Of a stretch of 58,128 nucleotides of DNA, positions 1,219 to 58,128 are shown piece by piece (the first letter of the stretch is position 1; every line of letters starts with the position of its first letter). The notes under the pieces were generated by a model. The model was not told the origin of the DNA, did not search any database, and saw only the letters and a list, made by a program, of their open reading frames with translations. The translations under genes and the position numbers were made by a program. Source of the stretch: a bacterium. GTDB taxonomy: Bacteria > Chloroflexota > Dormibacteria > Aeolococcales > Aeolococcaceae. Location of the stretch: the NCBI GenBank assembly GCA_021803465.1, contig JAJZLL010000041.1:66-58193 (forward strand). Reading direction: 5' to 3'.

Positions 1219-3129
1219 TCACTCTGTGATGAAGCCGCTCACCTGGTGTTCCCACAGCTGGGCATAGAGGCCACCGTGCGAAAGGAGCTCCTTGGGAGTT
1301 CCATCTTCGACGACATGCCCCTTGTCGAGCACGATGATCCTGTCCATGTTCTGGAGCGTGGAGAGCCGGTGTGCTATTGCGAGGACTGTCTGGCCACGGC
1401 TTCCTTCGATTTTCCAGAGATTCTCGAGCGCATGCTGAACGAGGAGCTCGCTTTCGGTGTCGAGTGCTGCAGTCGCCTCATCAAGAATGAGGATGGGTTC
1501 CGCCTGCAGAAATGCCCTCGCAATGGCAACTCTCGCACGCTGGCCAATGGAGAGTTTCACACCCCGCTCACCGACAAGCGCATGGTACCCCTCGGGAATC
1601 TCATTGATGAACTCGTCAGCATGTGCCATCTCTGCAGCCTCTCGAATGCGGGGATTCACTGCTCCGTCCAGGAAGGGAGGAATGCGTGCAGCATAGGCGA
1701 TATTCTCTGCAATGGAACGGTGAAACATCGAGGTGTCCTGGGGGACAAAGGCAATGAGTTGTGACAGTCCCTCCCGCTTCACATGCTGTCCATCGAGCAC
1801 GAATGCTCCTCCTGAAACGGGATAGTATCCAAGGAGCAGCTTCGTGAGAGTTGATTTCCCAGCACCGGACCTCCCAACAATGCCCACCTTCTCCCCACGC
1901 TGAAAGGTGAGGTTCACATGATCAAGGATGAGTGGAGCGTGATCCGGGTAATGGAAGCTGATGTCATGGAGCTCAAGGGTCTGTTCAAACGGGAGTGCTT
2001 GCACCTCCTCCAGTTCAGGATCCCGGGTAATGATCCTGTCTCCAAAGAGGTATCGATGCGCTTCATCCGTGCGGGCAACCTGGAGCTTGAACTGCGACAG
2101 CTGCCAGATGGACTCCCAGATGGTTGTAGTGAAGATGAGGACTGCGGACAGCAGGGTTGCGAGCTGGGTGATGTTGATTGTGTGGTCGAGATAGAAGTAC
2201 ACGTTTAGGACGATGCTCACAGGCCAGATAACTCCCCGCACAATGAAGCTCGAATTCCCCCAGTACTTGTATGAGGCCCAGAACGATGCACGCACAGAGT
2301 CCAGCACCTTCTCCTGCTCTTCCTGCAGTGCACGAATCTCTGTCTGCTCGGAATGGAACGACTTCACATTCTGGAAGTTCGCGATGACATCAAAAAGGAT
2401 GCCATTCCTGGTGGATTTCGCATCAGATGCGAGGCTTTCCGCAGCAGATGCGGGACCCTGGAATCTCCTCCCGACGAAGTAGAGAATGACGAGTCCACAT
2501 GCATAGACAACCGTTGTTTCCCAATTGACTGAGAGGAAAATGACCAGAATCGAGACAATGGAAACCACCTGGCCAACATAGTTGTAGGGCAGCTCCTGCG
2601 TGAGCATGTCGAGCTCCTGCCTCATGAGGGTGATGTAGGAAGCGATCTTTCCTGTGAGCTTGTCCACAAAATATGGGTACGGCTCGGAGATGACGTTGCT
2701 GAAGAGCACCTGCTCGTAACGGAATGCAAGCGGCTTCATGTAGCGCAGGTACAGGATTTCAGACCCCCGCCAGCTCGCCATGTGCGCAACGGAGAGACCG
2801 ACAAGAATCCACATGAGCAGGAGGACATGTCCACGGTTCACATGGGCAGCGGTTACCTCACCCGTGAGCTTGCCAATCACGAATGGCAGAACAGCAAGGA
2901 AACTTCCTGCGATGAGAAATGCGAGACAGACAAGAAATGACGCAAGCATTCCCTGGGAACGCAAGAACGCCCAGTAGGAGCGAAGCGAAATATGGTGCTT
3001 CACGTTTGAATTCCCAATTAGGCCTGTGCTCCGCACGTGGTGATGTGGGGGTTCCATGCTGGAGGATACGGCAGCTGCCAGTAAATCGTAGTCTATCTGA
3101 TCAGAATGAAGTGGAGAAGTCGACAGCAA
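1219..3129 (-). CDS. ABC exporter, fused permease + ATP-binding domain (MsbA/MdlB-like)
   Basis: About 6 hydrophobic segments, then Walker A GRSGAGKS, Q-loop VPQD, signature variant LSIGQ, Walker B ILILDEAT, H-switch IAHRLST. Start codon uncertain. Confidence 0.92.
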   Translation of the reverse strand: MLSTSPLHSDQIDYDLLAAAVSSSMEPPHHHVRSTGLIGNSNVKHHISLRSYWAFLRSQGMLASFLVCLAFLIAGSFLAVLPFVIGKLTGEVTAAHVNRGHVLLLMWILVGLSVAHMASWRGSEILYLRYMKPLAFRYEQVLFSNVISEPYPYFVDKLTGKIASYITLMRQELDMLTQELPYNYVGQVVSIVSILVIFLSVNWETTVVYACGLVILYFVGRRFQGPASAAESLASDAKSTRNGILFDVIANFQNVKSFHSEQTEIRALQEEQEKVLDSVRASFWASYKYWGNSSFIVRGVIWPVSIVLNVYFYLDHTINITQLATLLSAVLIFTTTIWESIWQLSQFKLQVARTDEAHRYLFGDRIITRDPELEEVQALPFEQTLELHDISFHYPDHAPLILDHVNLTFQRGEKVGIVGRSGAGKSTLTKLLLGYYPVSGGAFVLDGQHVKREGLSQLIAFVPQDTSMFHRSIAENIAYAARIPPFLDGAVNPRIREAAEMAHADEFINEIPEGYHALVGERGVKLSIGQRARVAIARAFLQAEPILILDEATAALDTESELLVQHALENLWKIEGSRGQTVLAIAHRLSTLQNMDRIIVLDKGHVVEDGTPKELLSHGGLYAQLWEHQVSGFITE

Positions 3130-3335
3130 GCAGTTTCATGGGAGATGCAAGCGTGGGGTGTTGCTGTCAGAAGGGGCGAAGTGCGTTGGAGCGTCATGAA
3201 CATGAAACCCTAAGCTATAGTCCCAATAGGCTGGACAGTCACAGAATGGATACGGTGTCATTCTGGGTGTCTCTGGACAGCTACTATCGTTTGTGCATAT
3301 GGATGAAGATTCTTCTGGGATGCAGGGAGCGTGTC

Positions 3336-3626
3336 ATGGAACGGAGATTTGATTTGGAACGGCCCATCACAGACGTTAGGCAGATTCCTCTAGCAGAGGC
3401 GCTCGCTGAATTTGCCAGAAAACAGGAGGAAGCAGAGCGGGGCGATGCGGGTTCTGCAGGTGACAGCCATGTCCCTGACCGTGCTGCCATATCAAAGCCG
3501 GCTTCTGTGAAATCTAAGAAACCCACAAAGGCGCAGTTGGCGAGGGAAGAAGAGCTCAAGAGGAATTTTGACAGAATCCGCATTCCCAGAGGGAGCGATC
3601 CCCTGCCAGAGAGAGAGCTCGGGTAG
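3336..3626 (+). CDS. hypothetical protein, 96 aa, charged
   Basis: 3' part of ORF 2919..3626; GGGAG at 3325-3329 precedes ATG 3336; protein-like composition (MERRFDLERPITDVRQIPLAEALAEFARKQEE); no family recognised. Confidence 0.55.
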   Translation: MERRFDLERPITDVRQIPLAEALAEFARKQEEAERGDAGSAGDSHVPDRAAISKPASVKSKKPTKAQLAREEELKRNFDRIRIPRGSDPLPERELG

Positions 3627-3798
3627 CGAGCATCATTGCGGTTAGACTGCAGGGTGCCCTAACTGTTACATGCACTGTGGCAGGCTGGTGCGGATTGCAG
3701 CTACTCAACGTGCGCCATCGCTCTGGTGGAACCCCTGCTGGAGCATGTGCAGTAGGGTATACTTGATCCTGCGACATCCTCTCCCAGGGAGGATTCAT

Positions 3799-3891
3799 AT
3801 GAGGCAGGTTGCACTTCCTGCTGCCGCAGATACTCATACATGCGATCACTTCGGATCGGGAATAGCGATCGGGACCGTGCACAGCTTGTGA
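3799..3891 (+). CDS. possible 30-aa small ORF upstream of the tRNA
   Basis: GGAGG (3788-3792) 6 nt before ATG 3799; TATACT at 3758-3763; peptide MRQVALPAAADTHTCDHFGSGIAIGTVHSL. Confidence 0.3.
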   Translation: MRQVALPAAADTHTCDHFGSGIAIGTVHSL

Positions 3892-3902
3892 ACATTGGGC
3901 AC

Positions 3903-3975
3903 GGCGGTATAGCTCAGATGGTAGAGCAGCCGGCTCATACCCGGTATGTCCCTGGTTCGATCCCAGGTACCGCCA
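3903..3975 (+). tRNA. tRNA with CAT anticodon, most likely elongator tRNA-Met; CCA not encoded
   Basis: Cloverleaf: acceptor GGCGGTA/TACCGCC, D arm GCTC/GAGC, anticodon arm GCCGG-CTCATAC-CCGGT, T arm CCTGG-TTCGATC-CCAGG, discriminator A3975. G1-C72 is paired and there is no GGG/CCC in the anticodon stem, so not initiator; G4/G5 and C38 resemble Firmicute elongator Met rather than Ile2. Confidence 0.95.
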
Positions 3976-52995: not shown

Positions 52996-54759
52996 ATGAA
53001 ACTATTCCATCCCAAGTTCAGAATGGTGTGCTGCTTTCTCATCGCACTTGGCGCGATCCTGTGCGACGCTCTCCCTGCAGCCGCTCTGTCTCCCATTGGA
53101 ACGAGTGGCTTTGAGATTACGACAGCAGCGGGAAATGGCACTGCGGGATTTCTTGGCGACAGTTCAGCAGCCACTTCTGCTGAGCTGGACAATCCATATG
53201 GAGTGGCAATCGATGCGCATGGAAACATCATCATCGCCGATTACCTCAACAACCGGATCCGCGTTCTTGCTGAAGCTACGGGCACGTTCTATCAACAGCC
53301 GATGGTGGCAGGCGACATCTACACGATCGCGGGAAATGGAACTGCTGGCTTTCAGGGTGATGGAGCTGCAGCAACTGCTGCGGAGCTGAACAATCCCAGG
53401 GGAGTCTATGTGGATGCATCAGGAGACATCCTTGTAGGAGACTACTTGAACAATCGCGTACGGGTGATCGCGGAGTCAACTGGTTCACACTATGGCCAGG
53501 CAATGACAGCAGGAGACATCTACACGATAGCCGGGAACGGAACGGGGGGATTTTCTGGAGATGGTGGGGCAGCAACAGCAGCAGAGCTTGTGAATCCTGT
53601 TGGTCTCGCAATTGATCCAAATGGAAATGTCGTAATTGCAGATGTGGGCAACAACCGTATTCGGGTAATTGCCGAATCGTCAGGCACGTTTTACCAGCAG
53701 GCAATGACAGCAGGCGACATCTACACGGTTGCAGGAGATGCAACCCAGGGGTATACGGGCACAGGAGGTCCGGCCACATCAGCTGAACTGTACTGGCCCC
53801 ACGATGTCCATGTTGACAGCAGTGGAAATCTTGTGATTGCTGACACGTACAACAATGTCATCCGTGTTGTTGCTGAATCGACTGGCACATATTATGGGCA
53901 GTCCATGACTGTGGGAGACATCTACACCATTGCGGGAAACGGCACTGCAGGATTTCTCGGCGATGGTGGTGCAGCAACATCAGCAGAGTTTGACACAATC
54001 TACAGCATTGCGTTCGATGCAGAAGGCAACATTCTCCTCACAGATGCCACGAACAACAGGATACGTGTCCTTGCTGAGTCGACTGGGATGATGTACGGCA
54101 TGCCGATGACTGCTGGGGACGTTTACACCATAGCGGGAGACGGCACAGCGGGGTTTGCGGGGGACGGAGGTGCTCCAGTCTCTGCCGAGCTGAATCTGCC
54201 TACTGGTCTCGTGACCAATTCTGCAGGGGATGTATTCATAGCGGACATTTACAACAACAGGATCCGCGAACTTCTTCCAACAGAGTCGTTGCAGGCGAGT
54301 GCAGCCATTGGTGCAGGAACACTGAGTTTTGTTTCCGCACCAGGGAATGTCACGTTTACCACTGCAACACTCACAGGAACGGACCAGACTGCCACAGCAT
54401 CGGAGACGCTCGATATCGGCGACAATACAGGGTCTGGTTCAGGCTGGAATGTCACGCTCTCCAATTCGGCATTCACTAGCGGCACGCACACGCTTCCCAG
54501 TGCAGATTTCACGGCAGCCACACCTGGCGTGCCCTCGTGTGACTCGGGTGTCTCCTGCTCAGCAGCCACCTGGTCAGCAAACGTTGCATATCCCTATGCG
54601 CTGCCAGGTGCCACAGCAACGAAGCTCCTTTCCGCATCGGCCACCACGGGCCGTGGTGACCAGACAGTCATCATTGCATGGAGCGAGAAGATTCCTGCTG
54701 CTGCATACACTGGCACGTACAGTTCCACCTGGACATTGACACTCGTGTCCGGGCCGTAA
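52996..54759 (+). CDS. secreted NHL-repeat (six-blade) protein with C-terminal WxL-like domain; paralog of 7655..9433
   Basis: Signal peptide; six ~67-aa repeats; DIGDNTGSGSGWNVTLSN, ATATKLLSA, GTYSSTWTLTLVSGP. Confidence 0.88.
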   Translation: MKLFHPKFRMVCCFLIALGAILCDALPAAALSPIGTSGFEITTAAGNGTAGFLGDSSAATSAELDNPYGVAIDAHGNIIIADYLNNRIRVLAEATGTFYQQPMVAGDIYTIAGNGTAGFQGDGAAATAAELNNPRGVYVDASGDILVGDYLNNRVRVIAESTGSHYGQAMTAGDIYTIAGNGTGGFSGDGGAATAAELVNPVGLAIDPNGNVVIADVGNNRIRVIAESSGTFYQQAMTAGDIYTVAGDATQGYTGTGGPATSAELYWPHDVHVDSSGNLVIADTYNNVIRVVAESTGTYYGQSMTVGDIYTIAGNGTAGFLGDGGAATSAEFDTIYSIAFDAEGNILLTDATNNRIRVLAESTGMMYGMPMTAGDVYTIAGDGTAGFAGDGGAPVSAELNLPTGLVTNSAGDVFIADIYNNRIRELLPTESLQASAAIGAGTLSFVSAPGNVTFTTATLTGTDQTATASETLDIGDNTGSGSGWNVTLSNSAFTSGTHTLPSADFTAATPGVPSCDSGVSCSAATWSANVAYPYALPGATATKLLSASATTGRGDQTVIIAWSEKIPAAAYTGTYSSTWTLTLVSGP

Positions 54760-54795: not shown

Positions 54796-55872
54796 TCAGG
54801 CGACTGTCACCTCGGGATTGAGGTAGACGTCCTGGATTGCATGGAGCAGCTCGATGCCTTCCGCCATTGGCCGTTGGAACGCCTTTCTTCCGCTGATGAG
54901 TCCCATGCCGCCTGCCCGCTTGTTGATGACAGCAGTGCGCACTGCCTCAGCGAGGTCACCACTTCCTGTCGAAGCACCGCCTGAGTTGATGAGGCCGGAA
55001 CGGCCCATGTAGCAGTTCACGACCTGGTACCGTGTGAGATCAATGGGATGAGGGGTAGTGAGCTCGGAATACACTTTCGGGGAGGTTTTACCGAACTTGA
55101 GCGCTGTGTAGCCGCCGTTCGTCTCTGGTAGCTTCTGCTTGATGATGTCCGCCTGGATCGTGACTCCAAGGTGGTTTGCCTGGCCTGTGAGGTCGGCAGC
55201 GAGATGGTAGTCGACTCCATCGTGGTTGAACGCGGGATTGCGCAGGTAGCACCAGAGAATGGTTGCCATTCCGAGATCGTGGGCCATGGCGAACGCCTGG
55301 GAGACTTCCTGAAGCTGTCGGGTCGACTCGTCGGAGCCGAAGTAGATCGTTGCTCCGACAGCGACTGCACCCATGTCGTACGCCTGTTCGACAGAGGCGA
55401 ACATCACCTGGTCGAACCTGTTCGGATATGTGAGGAGCTCATTGTGGTTGAGCTTGCAGATGAAGGGAATGCGGTGGGCATACTTCCGGGCGACTGATCC
55501 AAGCACACCAAGCGTTGAGGCAACAGCGTTGCAGCCCCCCTCGAGGGCGAGCTCGACGATCGCCTCACTGTCAAAGTAGCGGGGTTCAGGCGCGAACGAT
55601 GCGCCTGCACTGTGCTCAATGCCCTGGTCAACAGGGAGGATGGAGAGATAGCCCGTTCCCGCAAGCCTGCCTGTGCCAAAGAGGGTCTGGAGGCTGCGGA
55701 GCACACGGATCGAGCGGTCCGATGCGGACCAGATCCGGTCAACGAACTCCGGTCCAGGAAGATGGAGAAGTGCCTTGTCAACTGTCGTGCATGAGTGTGT
55801 GAGAAGATCCGATGCATCAGTGCCGAGAAGGGCCTCAATGTCGGATGTTGTGCGGCTTGCTGTGGCAGTCAT
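54796..55872 (-). CDS. fbaB: class I fructose-bisphosphate aldolase (FbaB/DhnA type)
   Basis: [30 protein letters not shown] (Schiff-base Lys), [17 protein letters not shown]; start ATG 55872. Confidence 0.95.
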
Positions 55873-55979
55873 GGTGGATTCCTTCCCTGTGGTCCACATG
55901 ACAGTGGACGTTCCGGAGTCATTATGCTCATGATATACACCAGGCGCCAGGTGGGGCAGGGAGACATGCGGAGGGCAGA

Positions 55980-57290
55980 ATGGGCGAGCTGACAATCGAG
56001 GGCGGTACTCCGCTGCACGGAGATGTCGCCATGTCCGGGAGCAAGAATGCTGCTCTTCCCATCATGGCAGCAGCACTTCTCACGGACGAGCCTGTTGCGC
56101 TCACCAATGTGCCCAACATACGGGACATTGAGATCCTGGCTGATATTCTCACCTCGCTTGGATGCGTTGTGGAAAGGACTGCACAGGATGCCTGGACTAT
56201 CGAAGCACGCAACCTCACATCCGCAACAGTTGGCCATGAGCTTGCTGAGCGGATACGTGGCTCCATTCTCCTCATGGGAGCACTTGTGGGGAGGCTCGGC
56301 GAGGCAGTTGTGGCAAAGCCTGGGGGAGACGATATTGGTGTCCGCAGAGTTGAGCAGCACATTGAGGGTCTCCGCATGATGGGAGCAGAGGTGCAGACTC
56401 ACGAGCGGGAATATGTCGTTCGCGCGAACAGGCTTCGTGGCGCCTGGATTGAGCTTGACATGCCCACAGTCACTGGCACAGAGAACCTCATGATGGCCGC
56501 AACATGCGCTGAGGGTGTCACCATCATCCAGAATGCTGCACGAGAGCCCCATGTGGTGGATCTTGCAAGGTGCCTTGCCGGCATGGGTGTGCGCATCCAG
56601 GGGGCTGGCACTGACCACATCATGATCGAGGGCGTGAAGGGTCGTCCTCACGGGACACGGCATGCTGTCGTTGCGGACTACATCGAGGCGGGTACATATC
56701 TCATCGCAGCTGCAGCAACCAGGGGCAATGTCACTGTCACAGCGACTGATCCTGCTGACCTCACCTGGCTCATCAAGAAGCTTCGGGAAGTGGGGTGCGA
56801 TGTTGTGCAGGGCGCTGACCACGTGCGGGTCAGTGCGGCTGGACATGTGCTCCGTGGTGTGGATGTCACAACCTGGCCCCATCCGGGCTTCGCCACGGAT
56901 CTTCAGGCCCAATACGTCTCACTCATGACACAGGCAGAGGGCACGAGCGCTGTGAGCGAGGCAGTCTATGAGCACCGGTTCCGCCATGTTCCCGAACTTG
57001 TGAAAATGGGAGCCAAGGTGAATGTCGAGGGCCGGAGCGCCATTGTTACTGGACCGACAGTACTCAAGGGTAGTCCCGTGGACATCACGGACATCCGGAG
57101 TGGTGCAGCGCTCACCATAGCAGCACTGTGTGCAGAAGGGACGAGCACCCTCTCGAATGTCTTCCACCTCCACCGGGGGTACGAGTCGTTCGAGGAGAAG
57201 CTCCAGTCCCTTGGGGCGCGCATCAGCTTGTCGGATGCTGGGGATACGACGGATGTTGCTGGACGGATGCGGTCAGTCATTGGCGACTGA
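55980..57290 (+). CDS. murA: UDP-N-acetylglucosamine 1-carboxyvinyltransferase, Asp-type active site
   Basis: [50 protein letters not shown]. Confidence 0.96.
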
Positions 57291-57316
57291 TTCCGGAAAG
57301 CCCAACGTGGGAATGC

Positions 57317-58128
57317 ATGGCCATGCTTGGTAGGAAGGTGGGAATTGCGATCGAGGGTGAGACCATCCGAACCTGCACAAGGCTTGGGGGAAGGGTTGTC
57401 AGCATACCCGCCTGCATTGCACGGAGTGCGCGTCTTGGGAGTGCACGTCACTATGTGGGAGAGGATGCGCTTGCCCGTCATGCGCAGGATCCGGAGACAT
57501 GGGAGATCCACTGGCCACTTCTTGGCACAGAACATCATGACAAGGATGGAGTGTACCAGCTTCTCCGGGAAGTGGTCATCCGCATGCTCGGCAGGGGACG
57601 GGTGTTCCGTCCAGAAGTCATCTGCGCAGTGGATCCAGAGCTCAGTGGCACTGCGAGAAGGCAGTTGCTGCAGGTGTTTTCCTCCTTTGGAACACGCACT
57701 GCATATCTTGTGGACCTTCCTGTCGCACACATGCTGGCCCTCCAGAAGTCGCACGCCCACCTGGGCCGATATGTCCTCCTTGACTGCAGCAAGCACCGCA
57801 TCGGCTGCTCTGTCATTGCTGACGGCTATGTCATCTCAGATGTCAGTCTGAGGGAGCGGATGGATTCACCTGCAGCTACTGAGCGGGAACCACTTCCAGA
57901 GGATACGCTGATTTCCCTGTTCGAAGAAGCGCAGGCCCGTGCGCCACGCGATGTGTGGGATGCGGCGTACACCCATGGTGTGGTGCTGACTGGAGCCTTG
58001 GCATCGAATCCCTCGGTGCAGCAGCGTGCATCTGCCCTTATGGGCACAGCCCTCCATGTCACAGCAGATCCGGAATTTCATGCAGTGCGGGGTGTCACGC
58101 AGGCGATAGACGACTGGAATGCGATCAA
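57317..58128 (+). CDS. MreB/Mbl-like actin-fold protein with degenerate ATP motifs and an internal deletion (runs off the window end)
   Basis: Manually translated, open to the end (270 codons): MAMLGRKVGIAIEG..., VGEDA, WPL, FRPEVICAV, AYLVDLPVA, VLLDCSKH, GVVLTGALA, LHVTADP..AVRG; colinear with MreB landmarks; follows murA. Confidence 0.8.
   Translation, partial: MAMLGRKVGIAIEGETIRTCTRLGGRVVSIPACIARSARLGSARHYVGEDALARHAQDPETWEIHWPLLGTEHHDKDGVYQLLREVVIRMLGRGRVFRPEVICAVDPELSGTARRQLLQVFSSFGTRTAYLVDLPVAHMLALQKSHAHLGRYVLLDCSKHRIGCSVIADGYVISDVSLRERMDSPAATEREPLPEDTLISLFEEAQARAPRDVWDAAYTHGVVLTGALASNPSVQQRASALMGTALHVTADPEFHAVRGVTQAIDDWNAI

Follow-up and report, generated by a model that had tools for sequence, protein, structure and literature searches.

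A reduced, murA-linked MreB paralogue of Dormibacteria that has lost subdomain IIB and most of its nucleotide-binding signature

The 58,128-nucleotide window analysed here, from contig JAJZLL010000041.1 (positions 66–58,193) of a genome assigned to the Dormibacteria (Chloroflexota), ends within a gene that lies directly downstream of murA and encodes a short relative of MreB; it is called mini-MreB below. MreB is an ATP-dependent filament that steers the RodA–PBP2 cell-wall synthase (PBP, penicillin-binding protein). From ATG 57317 the frame is open to position 58126 of the forward strand and translates into 270 residues without a stop, as an earlier note on this DNA had described. The note also stated that the open reading frame (ORF) track had missed the gene. 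This is correct, and the reason is that the frame enters the list (as 57128..58126, open at its 3' end) only if frames with open ends are admitted. Judged from the sequence, ATG 57323 is the likelier start, because it gives the beginning MLGRK, which matches the MLGKK start of the family, and because a GGGAA stretch lies 9 nt before it. The gene would then occupy 57323..58128 (+), with ATG 57317 as a possible alternative start. Residues are numbered from the MLGRK start of the complete protein of 276 aa (P0002).

The window ends after residue 268, so that eight residues fall wholly or partly beyond it. The contig itself extends farther: base 58128 is followed by 10 N and then by a frame that reads ...AYVYIK and a stop. 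A database record holds a 100%-identical protein of 276 aa with the C-terminus KRAYVYIK. The 10-N run splits the last codons of the gene (positions 2313–2322 of locus L001, contig G000:C37), and comparison of the recorded protein with the reading frame beyond the gap puts the bases truly missing at only about 3, the gap length being arbitrary or the stretch masked. Contigs from four sequencing runs in three studies show zero differences from the locus where they overlap it, and one of 24,958 bases, from run X1, covers 57200–58128 and continues past it. Eight listed runs contain the locus, all of them DNA and drawn from mine drainage, mine tailings and sediment metagenomes. On the opposite strand a shadow ORF of 276 aa (56966–57796, −) overlaps murA at its end and also the first half of mini-MreB; such a frame is typical of G+C-rich DNA and bears no sign of being a gene.

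The likeness of mini-MreB to MreB is weak in plain sequence and strong in profile and fold. The earlier note had proposed a profile search and a structural superposition as checks on an MreB-like actin fold. The Pfam family MreB_Mbl (PF06723) does match the protein, with an E-value of 5.7e-6, but the 25.8 bits lie under the cut-off of 27. The NCBIfam MreB models likewise fall below their thresholds (22.4 against 293, 22.3 against 515 and 13.8 against 365.75 bits), and phmmer against the sequences of the Protein Data Bank returned a sole match, Thermotoga maritima MreB (1jce), at E 0.019. A profile built from the three orthologues of the genus and run against 1.84 billion representatives gave 191 matches at E <= 1e-3, of which 30 reached E <= 1e-10; outside the genus, the highest-ranking are MreB-like proteins of 313–334 aa (E 1.3e-26 to 1e-17). 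The AlphaFold2 model, computed from a 129-row alignment, has a predicted local distance difference score (pLDDT) of 91.3 and a predicted TM-score (pTM) of 0.89. All top Foldseek matches to this model are MreB, with a query TM-score (TMq) of 0.83 for both 2wus and 1jcf. VIA-align superposes the model on T. maritima MreB 2wus_A with Z 27.6 and a root-mean-square deviation of 2.7 Å over 272 residues, compared with scores of 24.9 for MamK and about 24 for actins. The actin fold is thus upheld by profile, model and superposition. By its model, mini-MreB is an actin-fold protein derived from MreB in which the core IA–IB–IIA is predicted to be kept.

What is missing beside this core is subdomain IIB. 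Alignment columns ~189–262, which make up IIB in the full-length proteins, are empty in mini-MreB or filled by the variable linker SLRERMDSPAATEREPLPEDT (residues 175–195; 57845..57907, +). In the AlphaFold2 model the linker is coil at 178–192, and the block of residues 181–190 has a pLDDT of 62. The alignment gap bears out the loss of IIB that the earlier note had described. Its estimate that ~80 residues were replaced by ~20 is somewhat too high, the net loss being ~50–60 residues relative to full-length family members of 325–340 aa.

The nucleotide-binding motifs are degenerate, and all the strings quoted for them in the earlier note could be located. Phosphate-1 reads VGIAIEG (residues 6–12; 57338..57358, +) where the family consensus is (V/L)GIDLGT, so that D has become A9, L has become I10, G has become E11 and T has become G12. 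The connect-1 region VDLPVAHMLALQ (residues 130–141; 57710..57745, +), which includes VDLPVAHML at residues 130–138, retains D131 and P133 and has M137 in place of A and A139 in place of G. In the phosphate-2 and catalytic stretch DCSKHRIG (residues 154–161; 57782..57805, +), of which DCSKHR is 154–159, D154 is retained and the glycines of the family's D(I/V)G(A/G)G(K)T(D/E) are gone. The T-X-[D/E] of the catalytic centre, part of the motif E...T-X-[D/E] as defined for MreBs in PMC9597168, is replaced by R-I-G. The adenosine motif reads LTGAL (residues 222–226; 57986..58000, +) instead of LTGGG or LCGGG, with G224 retained. E11, E13 and R159 are invariant in the three orthologues of the genus.

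The losses can be set against a reference set of 24 full-length homologues, 19 of them murA-linked and five canonical, from which the aberrant G014 and G008 were left out. In this set, 28 columns are at least 88% identical, and mini-MreB agrees with 17 of them. Six of the 11 lost columns lie in phosphate-1 (D to A9, L to I10 and G to E11), connect-1 (A to M137 and G to A139) and phosphate-2 (G to S156). Two more follow the adenosine motif (L to N229 and G to S231), and one is deleted at the start of IIB; the others are E to I28, after the second strand, and G to T69. In the 129-sequence alignment, four of the 11 near-invariant columns are lost (D9, G11, G139 and G156). As read from these alignments, the protein of this genus has shed IIB together with most of the glycine-rich, acidic nucleotide-binding signature, and it is plausible that it is independent of nucleotide.

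Comparison with related genomes identifies mini-MreB, by sequence and gene order, as the orthologue in its own genus of a distinct MreB paralogue that is found directly downstream of murA across the class Dormibacteria. The two closest orthologues, 72–74% identical, come from metagenome-assembled genomes labelled Candidatus Dormibacteria or Dormiibacterota. Mini-MreB has a match in 40 of 41 genomes of the order, the exception being G006, which is 79% complete. In 34 of 36 loci of the order, a set that does not include the unpublished genomes G004, G027, G032 and G036, the gene immediately before the MreB-like one is an orthologue of murA, at 50–91% identity; of the other two loci, L020 (G009) has no murA in its flank and L027 (G016) is a fragment at a contig end. 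The arrangement recurs in 8/8 loci from three further families of the class, which brings the count to 42 of 44 loci examined, and of the 71 genomes of the class, 67 have a match to a profile built from full-length members.

The usual form of this paralogue is a protein of 313–340 aa that scores 160–260 bits on MreB_Mbl and carries DLG(T/S), D-x-G-x-G-(K)T-(D/E) and L(T/C)GGG. Its hallmarks without counterpart in canonical MreB are the MLG(K/R)K start and a C-terminal (K/R)R..Y(I/L)(R/K) tail, which in the murA-linked family runs ...KRNFMYIR. Mini-MreB has both. Its tail, WNAIKRAYVYIK, begins at 58115..58128 (+), where the end of the window breaks it off; in the family the consensus reads LDVLKRNFMYIR. 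Thus mini-MreB resembles the other murA-linked proteins (P0005, P0007 and P0009 among them) in locus, in start and tail motifs and in clade, and differs from them in being short and degenerate where they have intact phosphate-1, phosphate-2 and adenosine motifs. In the tree, from which G016 (a 188-aa fragment at a contig end) was omitted, as it was from the alignment, the murA-linked proteins form a clade, and a branch with support 100/100 divides it from canonical MreBs encoded in the same genomes. The stem leading to the genus is very long, at 2.39 changes per column, the median for end branches being 0.31. In PMC8136486, a gene cluster of Mbl, SpoIID, SpoIIID and MurA is inferred to be ancestral in Firmicutes, where Mbl clusters with MurA much as mini-MreB adjoins murA here; by analogy, the murA–mreB linkage may be old.

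The C-terminal tail receives no support as an amphipathic membrane-targeting helix from a shuffle test of the last 14 residues of mini-MreB, whose hydrophobic moment of 0.42 is reached by ~20% of shuffles. The corresponding moments in five other murA-linked members are matched by 22–40% of shuffles.

Mini-MreB is under purifying selection and is not undergoing neutral decay. The frame is intact in all three genomes of the genus, whose proteins are 72–77% identical. The ratio of nonsynonymous to synonymous substitution rates (dN/dS) is 0.11–0.15 for the whole gene, 0.06–0.08 for residues 1–172 and 0.12–0.21 for residues 206–268, compared with 0.05 for the adjacent murA. Change is concentrated in the fast-evolving linker, where the proportion of nonsynonymous differences (pN) is 0.43–0.60 against 0.10–0.12 in the N-terminal part, and both protein ends are invariant among the three orthologues. 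The earlier note had named an intact mbl at this site in relatives, together with neutral decay of this copy, as grounds against its reading. An intact MreB-like gene is indeed found there, yet the low dN/dS of the mini form speaks against neutral decay.

Reduced forms are not confined to this genus, whose three orthologues measure 276–279 aa. Two genera of the sister family, g24 and g25, have forms of 269–281 aa at the same locus, in which the motifs are degenerate in another way (D/E-L-S/A-P-D; LLPQ; LAGRG). The free tree joins the genus, the sister-family mini forms and the long-branched G014 with support of just 83/59; it requires four changes of the label "short", of which the starred branches force only one. 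In the approximately unbiased (AU) test, a tree that sets the sister-family clade apart from the genus has a log-likelihood 6.25 higher than the free tree and a p-AU of 0.695; the constraint comprised 13 sister-family rows with P0017 and P0022, which nest among them, including the full-length G025 and excluding this genus, and the groups were chosen after the tree had been seen. These sequence data agree with, and slightly favour, a loss of IIB that took place independently in this genus, though they do not prove it.

Two further members depart from the usual form. The orthologue of genus g13 (L025; G014:C97, from ~3002, +) has 300 aa, the motifs AIDLTPG and VAVVEPHG, a partly shortened IIB and a branch of 2.55; from its sequence it may represent a third, independent degeneration. 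The orthologue of genus g7 (L019; G008:C6, ~3056–3950, −), of 297 aa, apparently lacks the IB segment (columns ~31–70) and keeps IIB. In the ESM Atlas, clusters of MreB/Mbl proteins of 238–271 aa, with scores of 0.90–0.95, occur in Dormibacterota, Thermodesulfobacteriota and Actinomycetota. These are leads only, but reduced MreB forms may be recurrent across phyla. The clusters of Thermodesulfobacteriota and Actinomycetota score 0.90–0.93 and have 50–160 members.

The cellular setting of mini-MreB is unusual for an MreB relative in that searches with PF06723 found no canonical MreB anywhere in the genus, whether in the genome of the window (91% complete) or in the other two (92% and 84%). In its own genome the matches are FtsA, beside FtsZ, DnaK, a PilM/FtsA-like protein and mini-MreB itself. 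FtsA and DnaK are the best matches in the other two as well, and the three genomes hold no full-length murA-linked copy either. Each genome of the genus has one gene of the shape, elongation, division and sporulation (SEDS) family and no RodA-type second SEDS; in the genome of the window, this gene is on contig C29, which also carries the sole strong match to a class-B transpeptidase. The Pfam model for MreC finds nothing in the 41 genomes of the order and detects the protein in 7 of 14 known control genomes. MreD was sought in the genome of the window alone and was not found there with a Pfam model that detects it in 5 of the 14 controls; DivIVA was not found in this genome.

Elsewhere in the order, canonical MreB (at least 283 bits) is present in 12 of the 41 genomes (G021, G022, G023, G025, G028–G032, G035, G036 and G038), and in all 12 a RodA-like SEDS lies on the same contig. 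With the module in only 12 of 41 genomes, the Rod system may have been lost repeatedly in Dormibacteria or gained patchily. In genus g24, seven of nine genomes have mini forms and no canonical MreB, the two with the canonical module being the unpublished G032 and G036 alone. In genus g25, all six genomes have both a mini form of 269–274 aa and canonical MreB with RodA. The murA-linked paralogue is therefore present whether or not the Rod module is. The RodA-like SEDS lies 2–3 kb from canonical MreB (in G021:C19, G022:C5, G023:C58, G025:C40, G029:C2 and others), within open frames of 1000–1235 aa that may be fused SEDS–PBP genes. G020 has two FtsW-like SEDS with near-equal scores (339 and 321 bits) and no canonical MreB.

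The conserved upstream partner, at 55980..57290 (+), would encode a MurA (UDP-N-acetylglucosamine 1-carboxyvinyltransferase) of 436 aa, an assignment based on reading of the sequence and a 34-row MurA alignment. Mini-MreB starts 26–32 nt downstream of it on the same strand. The co-expression with murA that the earlier note had proposed agrees with this spacing and with the lack of a terminator-like site between the two genes. In the 3812 bases from murA to cdaR, no terminator-like site was found, against a shuffle mean of 1.6, and the single promoter-like site, upstream of murA, compares with a shuffle mean of 1.5; neither count is discriminating. Downstream of mini-MreB are CdaA (domains DAC and CdaA_N) and then a YbbR-like protein (cdaR). 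The cdaA gene falls inside the fetched flanks in eight of 36 loci and is tightly adjacent only in this genus. Prediction of a complex between MurA (34 rows) and mini-MreB (129 rows) gave a score of 0.00 against a mark of 0.32, which speaks neither for binding nor against it.

MreB and Mbl (PF06723, TIGR00904; 1jcf, 2wus and 4czl) share common descent with mini-MreB and, by the superposition at Z 27.6, the same IA–IB–IIA core. Mini-MreB differs from them in the lack of IIB, the degenerate motifs, the scores below curated cut-offs and the extra conserved C-terminal tail, and no Rod-system genes were found in its genome. The plasmid-segregating actin AlfA has ~275 aa and a short loop in place of IIB, as does mini-MreB. 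AlfA keeps the five actin motifs, binds ATP, polymerises and belongs to a plasmid or phage partition family (10.1101/186080), whereas mini-MreB is chromosomal, of the MreB lineage and degenerate in its motifs. AlfA is not among the 50 matches listed from Foldseek or from VIA-align with the mini-MreB model. By description, AlfA appears to be the closest known kind.

A Streptomyces coelicolor protein, SCO6166 (mbl2), was reportedly described by Heichlinger and colleagues in 2011 as lacking subdomains IB and IIB. PMC6629963 describes SCO6166 as a third MreB homologue that is expressed only in vegetative mycelium. Spiroplasma MreB3, as described in PMC9597168, is a paralogue that lacks the catalytic E...T-X-[D/E] and releases phosphate slowly; it is full length, binds nucleotide and polymerises, whereas the losses in mini-MreB reach much further into the pocket and include IIB. 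In the literature searched, supplements being outside the search, there is no description of an MreB-lineage protein without both IIB and the nucleotide motifs, nor of the MreBs of Dormibacteria.

Taken as a whole, it seems somewhat probable that mini-MreB is an MreB-derived, constrained mini form that serves as a static scaffold in envelope synthesis without canonical use of ATP. In such a mechanism, the protein would be expressed from a murA–mini-MreB–cdaA–cdaR operon, would no longer bind or hydrolyse ATP in the canonical manner, and would use the conserved surfaces of its core, along with the conserved C-terminal tail, to act in cell-envelope synthesis as an adaptor or static scaffold. Mini-MreB is probably a passive scaffold and not a dynamic filament, and would not be a regulator of canonical MreB either. 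One may speculate that E11 and E13, with K157–R159, all facing the old phosphate site, close the cleft. A bolder proposal, which is tentative and which we rather doubt, is that of a pseudo-actin: a class-wide, MurA-coupled and Rod-independent MreB paralogue from which at least two lineages of Dormibacteria independently shed IIB and the nucleotide site under selection. In this genus, the conserved acidic E11 and E13 of the former phosphate-1 loop and the basic K157, H158 and R159 of the former phosphate-2 loop may then hold the cleft shut in place of ATP. The protein would be a scaffold locked in the "on" state that serves either the opening steps of peptidoglycan synthesis or cyclic di-AMP (c-di-AMP) signalling.

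Several points weigh against a nucleotide-free scaffold. The AlphaFold2 input alignment consists mostly of full-length MreBs, which biases the model toward an MreB-like result. Completeness of the genome is 91%, and of the 14 controls the MreC model detects only 7 and the MreD model only 5. The dN/dS values are rough, dS being saturated (1.4–2.0). D131, D154, T223 and G224 survive, so that a non-canonical nucleotide site is conceivable. Short IIB-less metagenomic proteins of 254–272 aa (P0006, P0008, P0015 and P0042) retain the motifs, and loss of IIB therefore does not by itself imply loss of ATP use. The scaffold role is read from gene order.

A different possibility is that mini-MreB is a nucleotide-dependent polymer with a rebuilt ATP pocket that assembles without IIB as AlfA does. 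AlfA filaments form without IIB and with a novel adenosine contact, and the four surviving residues and the four short relatives with full motifs are in keeping with such a protein. But AlfA keeps all five actin motifs (10.1101/186080), and mini-MreB has replaced the phosphate-1 Asp and Gly, the phosphate-2 glycines and T-X-[D/E], with a Glu at the phosphate-1 glycine and with replacements (E11, E13 and R159) that are invariant in three orthologues. A polymer of this kind is unlikely. Recruitment to a task outside the cytoskeleton, such as regulating the turnover of MurA or partnering the adjacent diadenylate cyclase CdaA in a regulatory role, is less likely still: cdaA and cdaR follow directly in this genus, cdaA is within the flanks in the eight loci noted above, and fast evolution followed by constraint suits a changed function, but the tight adjacency of cdaA is limited to the genus.

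The earlier note had favoured a nucleotide-free MreB derivative that could cap, nucleate or inhibit canonical MreB filaments. The model does retain the IA, IB and IIA surfaces of MreB, and a capping or poisoning role could apply in g25, where mini form and canonical MreB with RodA coexist in all six genomes. In the present genus this proposal does not hold up, because searches of its three genomes found no canonical MreB, so that capping would have no target; the genus also lacks a full-length murA-linked copy, and most g24 genomes (7/9) have mini forms without canonical MreB. We regard such a role as very unlikely. Least credible of all is a decaying remnant or pseudogene of a murA-linked mreB, or a chance frame in G+C-rich DNA. 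The long stem branch, the Pfam score below threshold and the commonness here of long shadow ORFs such as 56966..57796 (−) might suggest it. They are opposed by the dN/dS of 0.11–0.15 (with dS saturated), the intact frames of all three genomes, the conservation of both ends with variation only in the linker, the confident AlphaFold2 model and the identity of overlapping contigs from four runs and three studies.

The interest of mini-MreB is that an MreB-lineage protein, its ATP signature largely erased, is conserved where no RodA, MreC, MreD or canonical MreB was found. If it is indeed nucleotide-free yet functional, bacterial actin folds would be reducible to static adaptors, like some eukaryotic actin-related proteins. 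This interest is tempered by an uncultured host, by a function that is inferred and by the occurrence of short MreB-like proteins in other phyla. The class-wide pairing of murA with mreB hints that an MreB paralogue is linked to the step that commits the cell to peptidoglycan synthesis, the first of its kind in the pathway. Full-length forms, an apparently IB-less form and IIB-less forms, both those with intact and those with degenerate motifs, make up a natural deletion series that could reveal the contribution of each actin subdomain.

Upstream of murA in the window, a frame at 54796–55995 (−) encodes an aldolase of the DeoC/LacD family (213 bits). Its longest version, from TTG 55995, would share 16 nt with the beginning of murA, and the true start is probably further in. 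It is preceded, at 52996–54759 (+), by a gene for a secreted-looking protein of 587 aa in which Pfam recognises NHL repeats and, at the C-terminus, a WxL cell-wall-binding domain.

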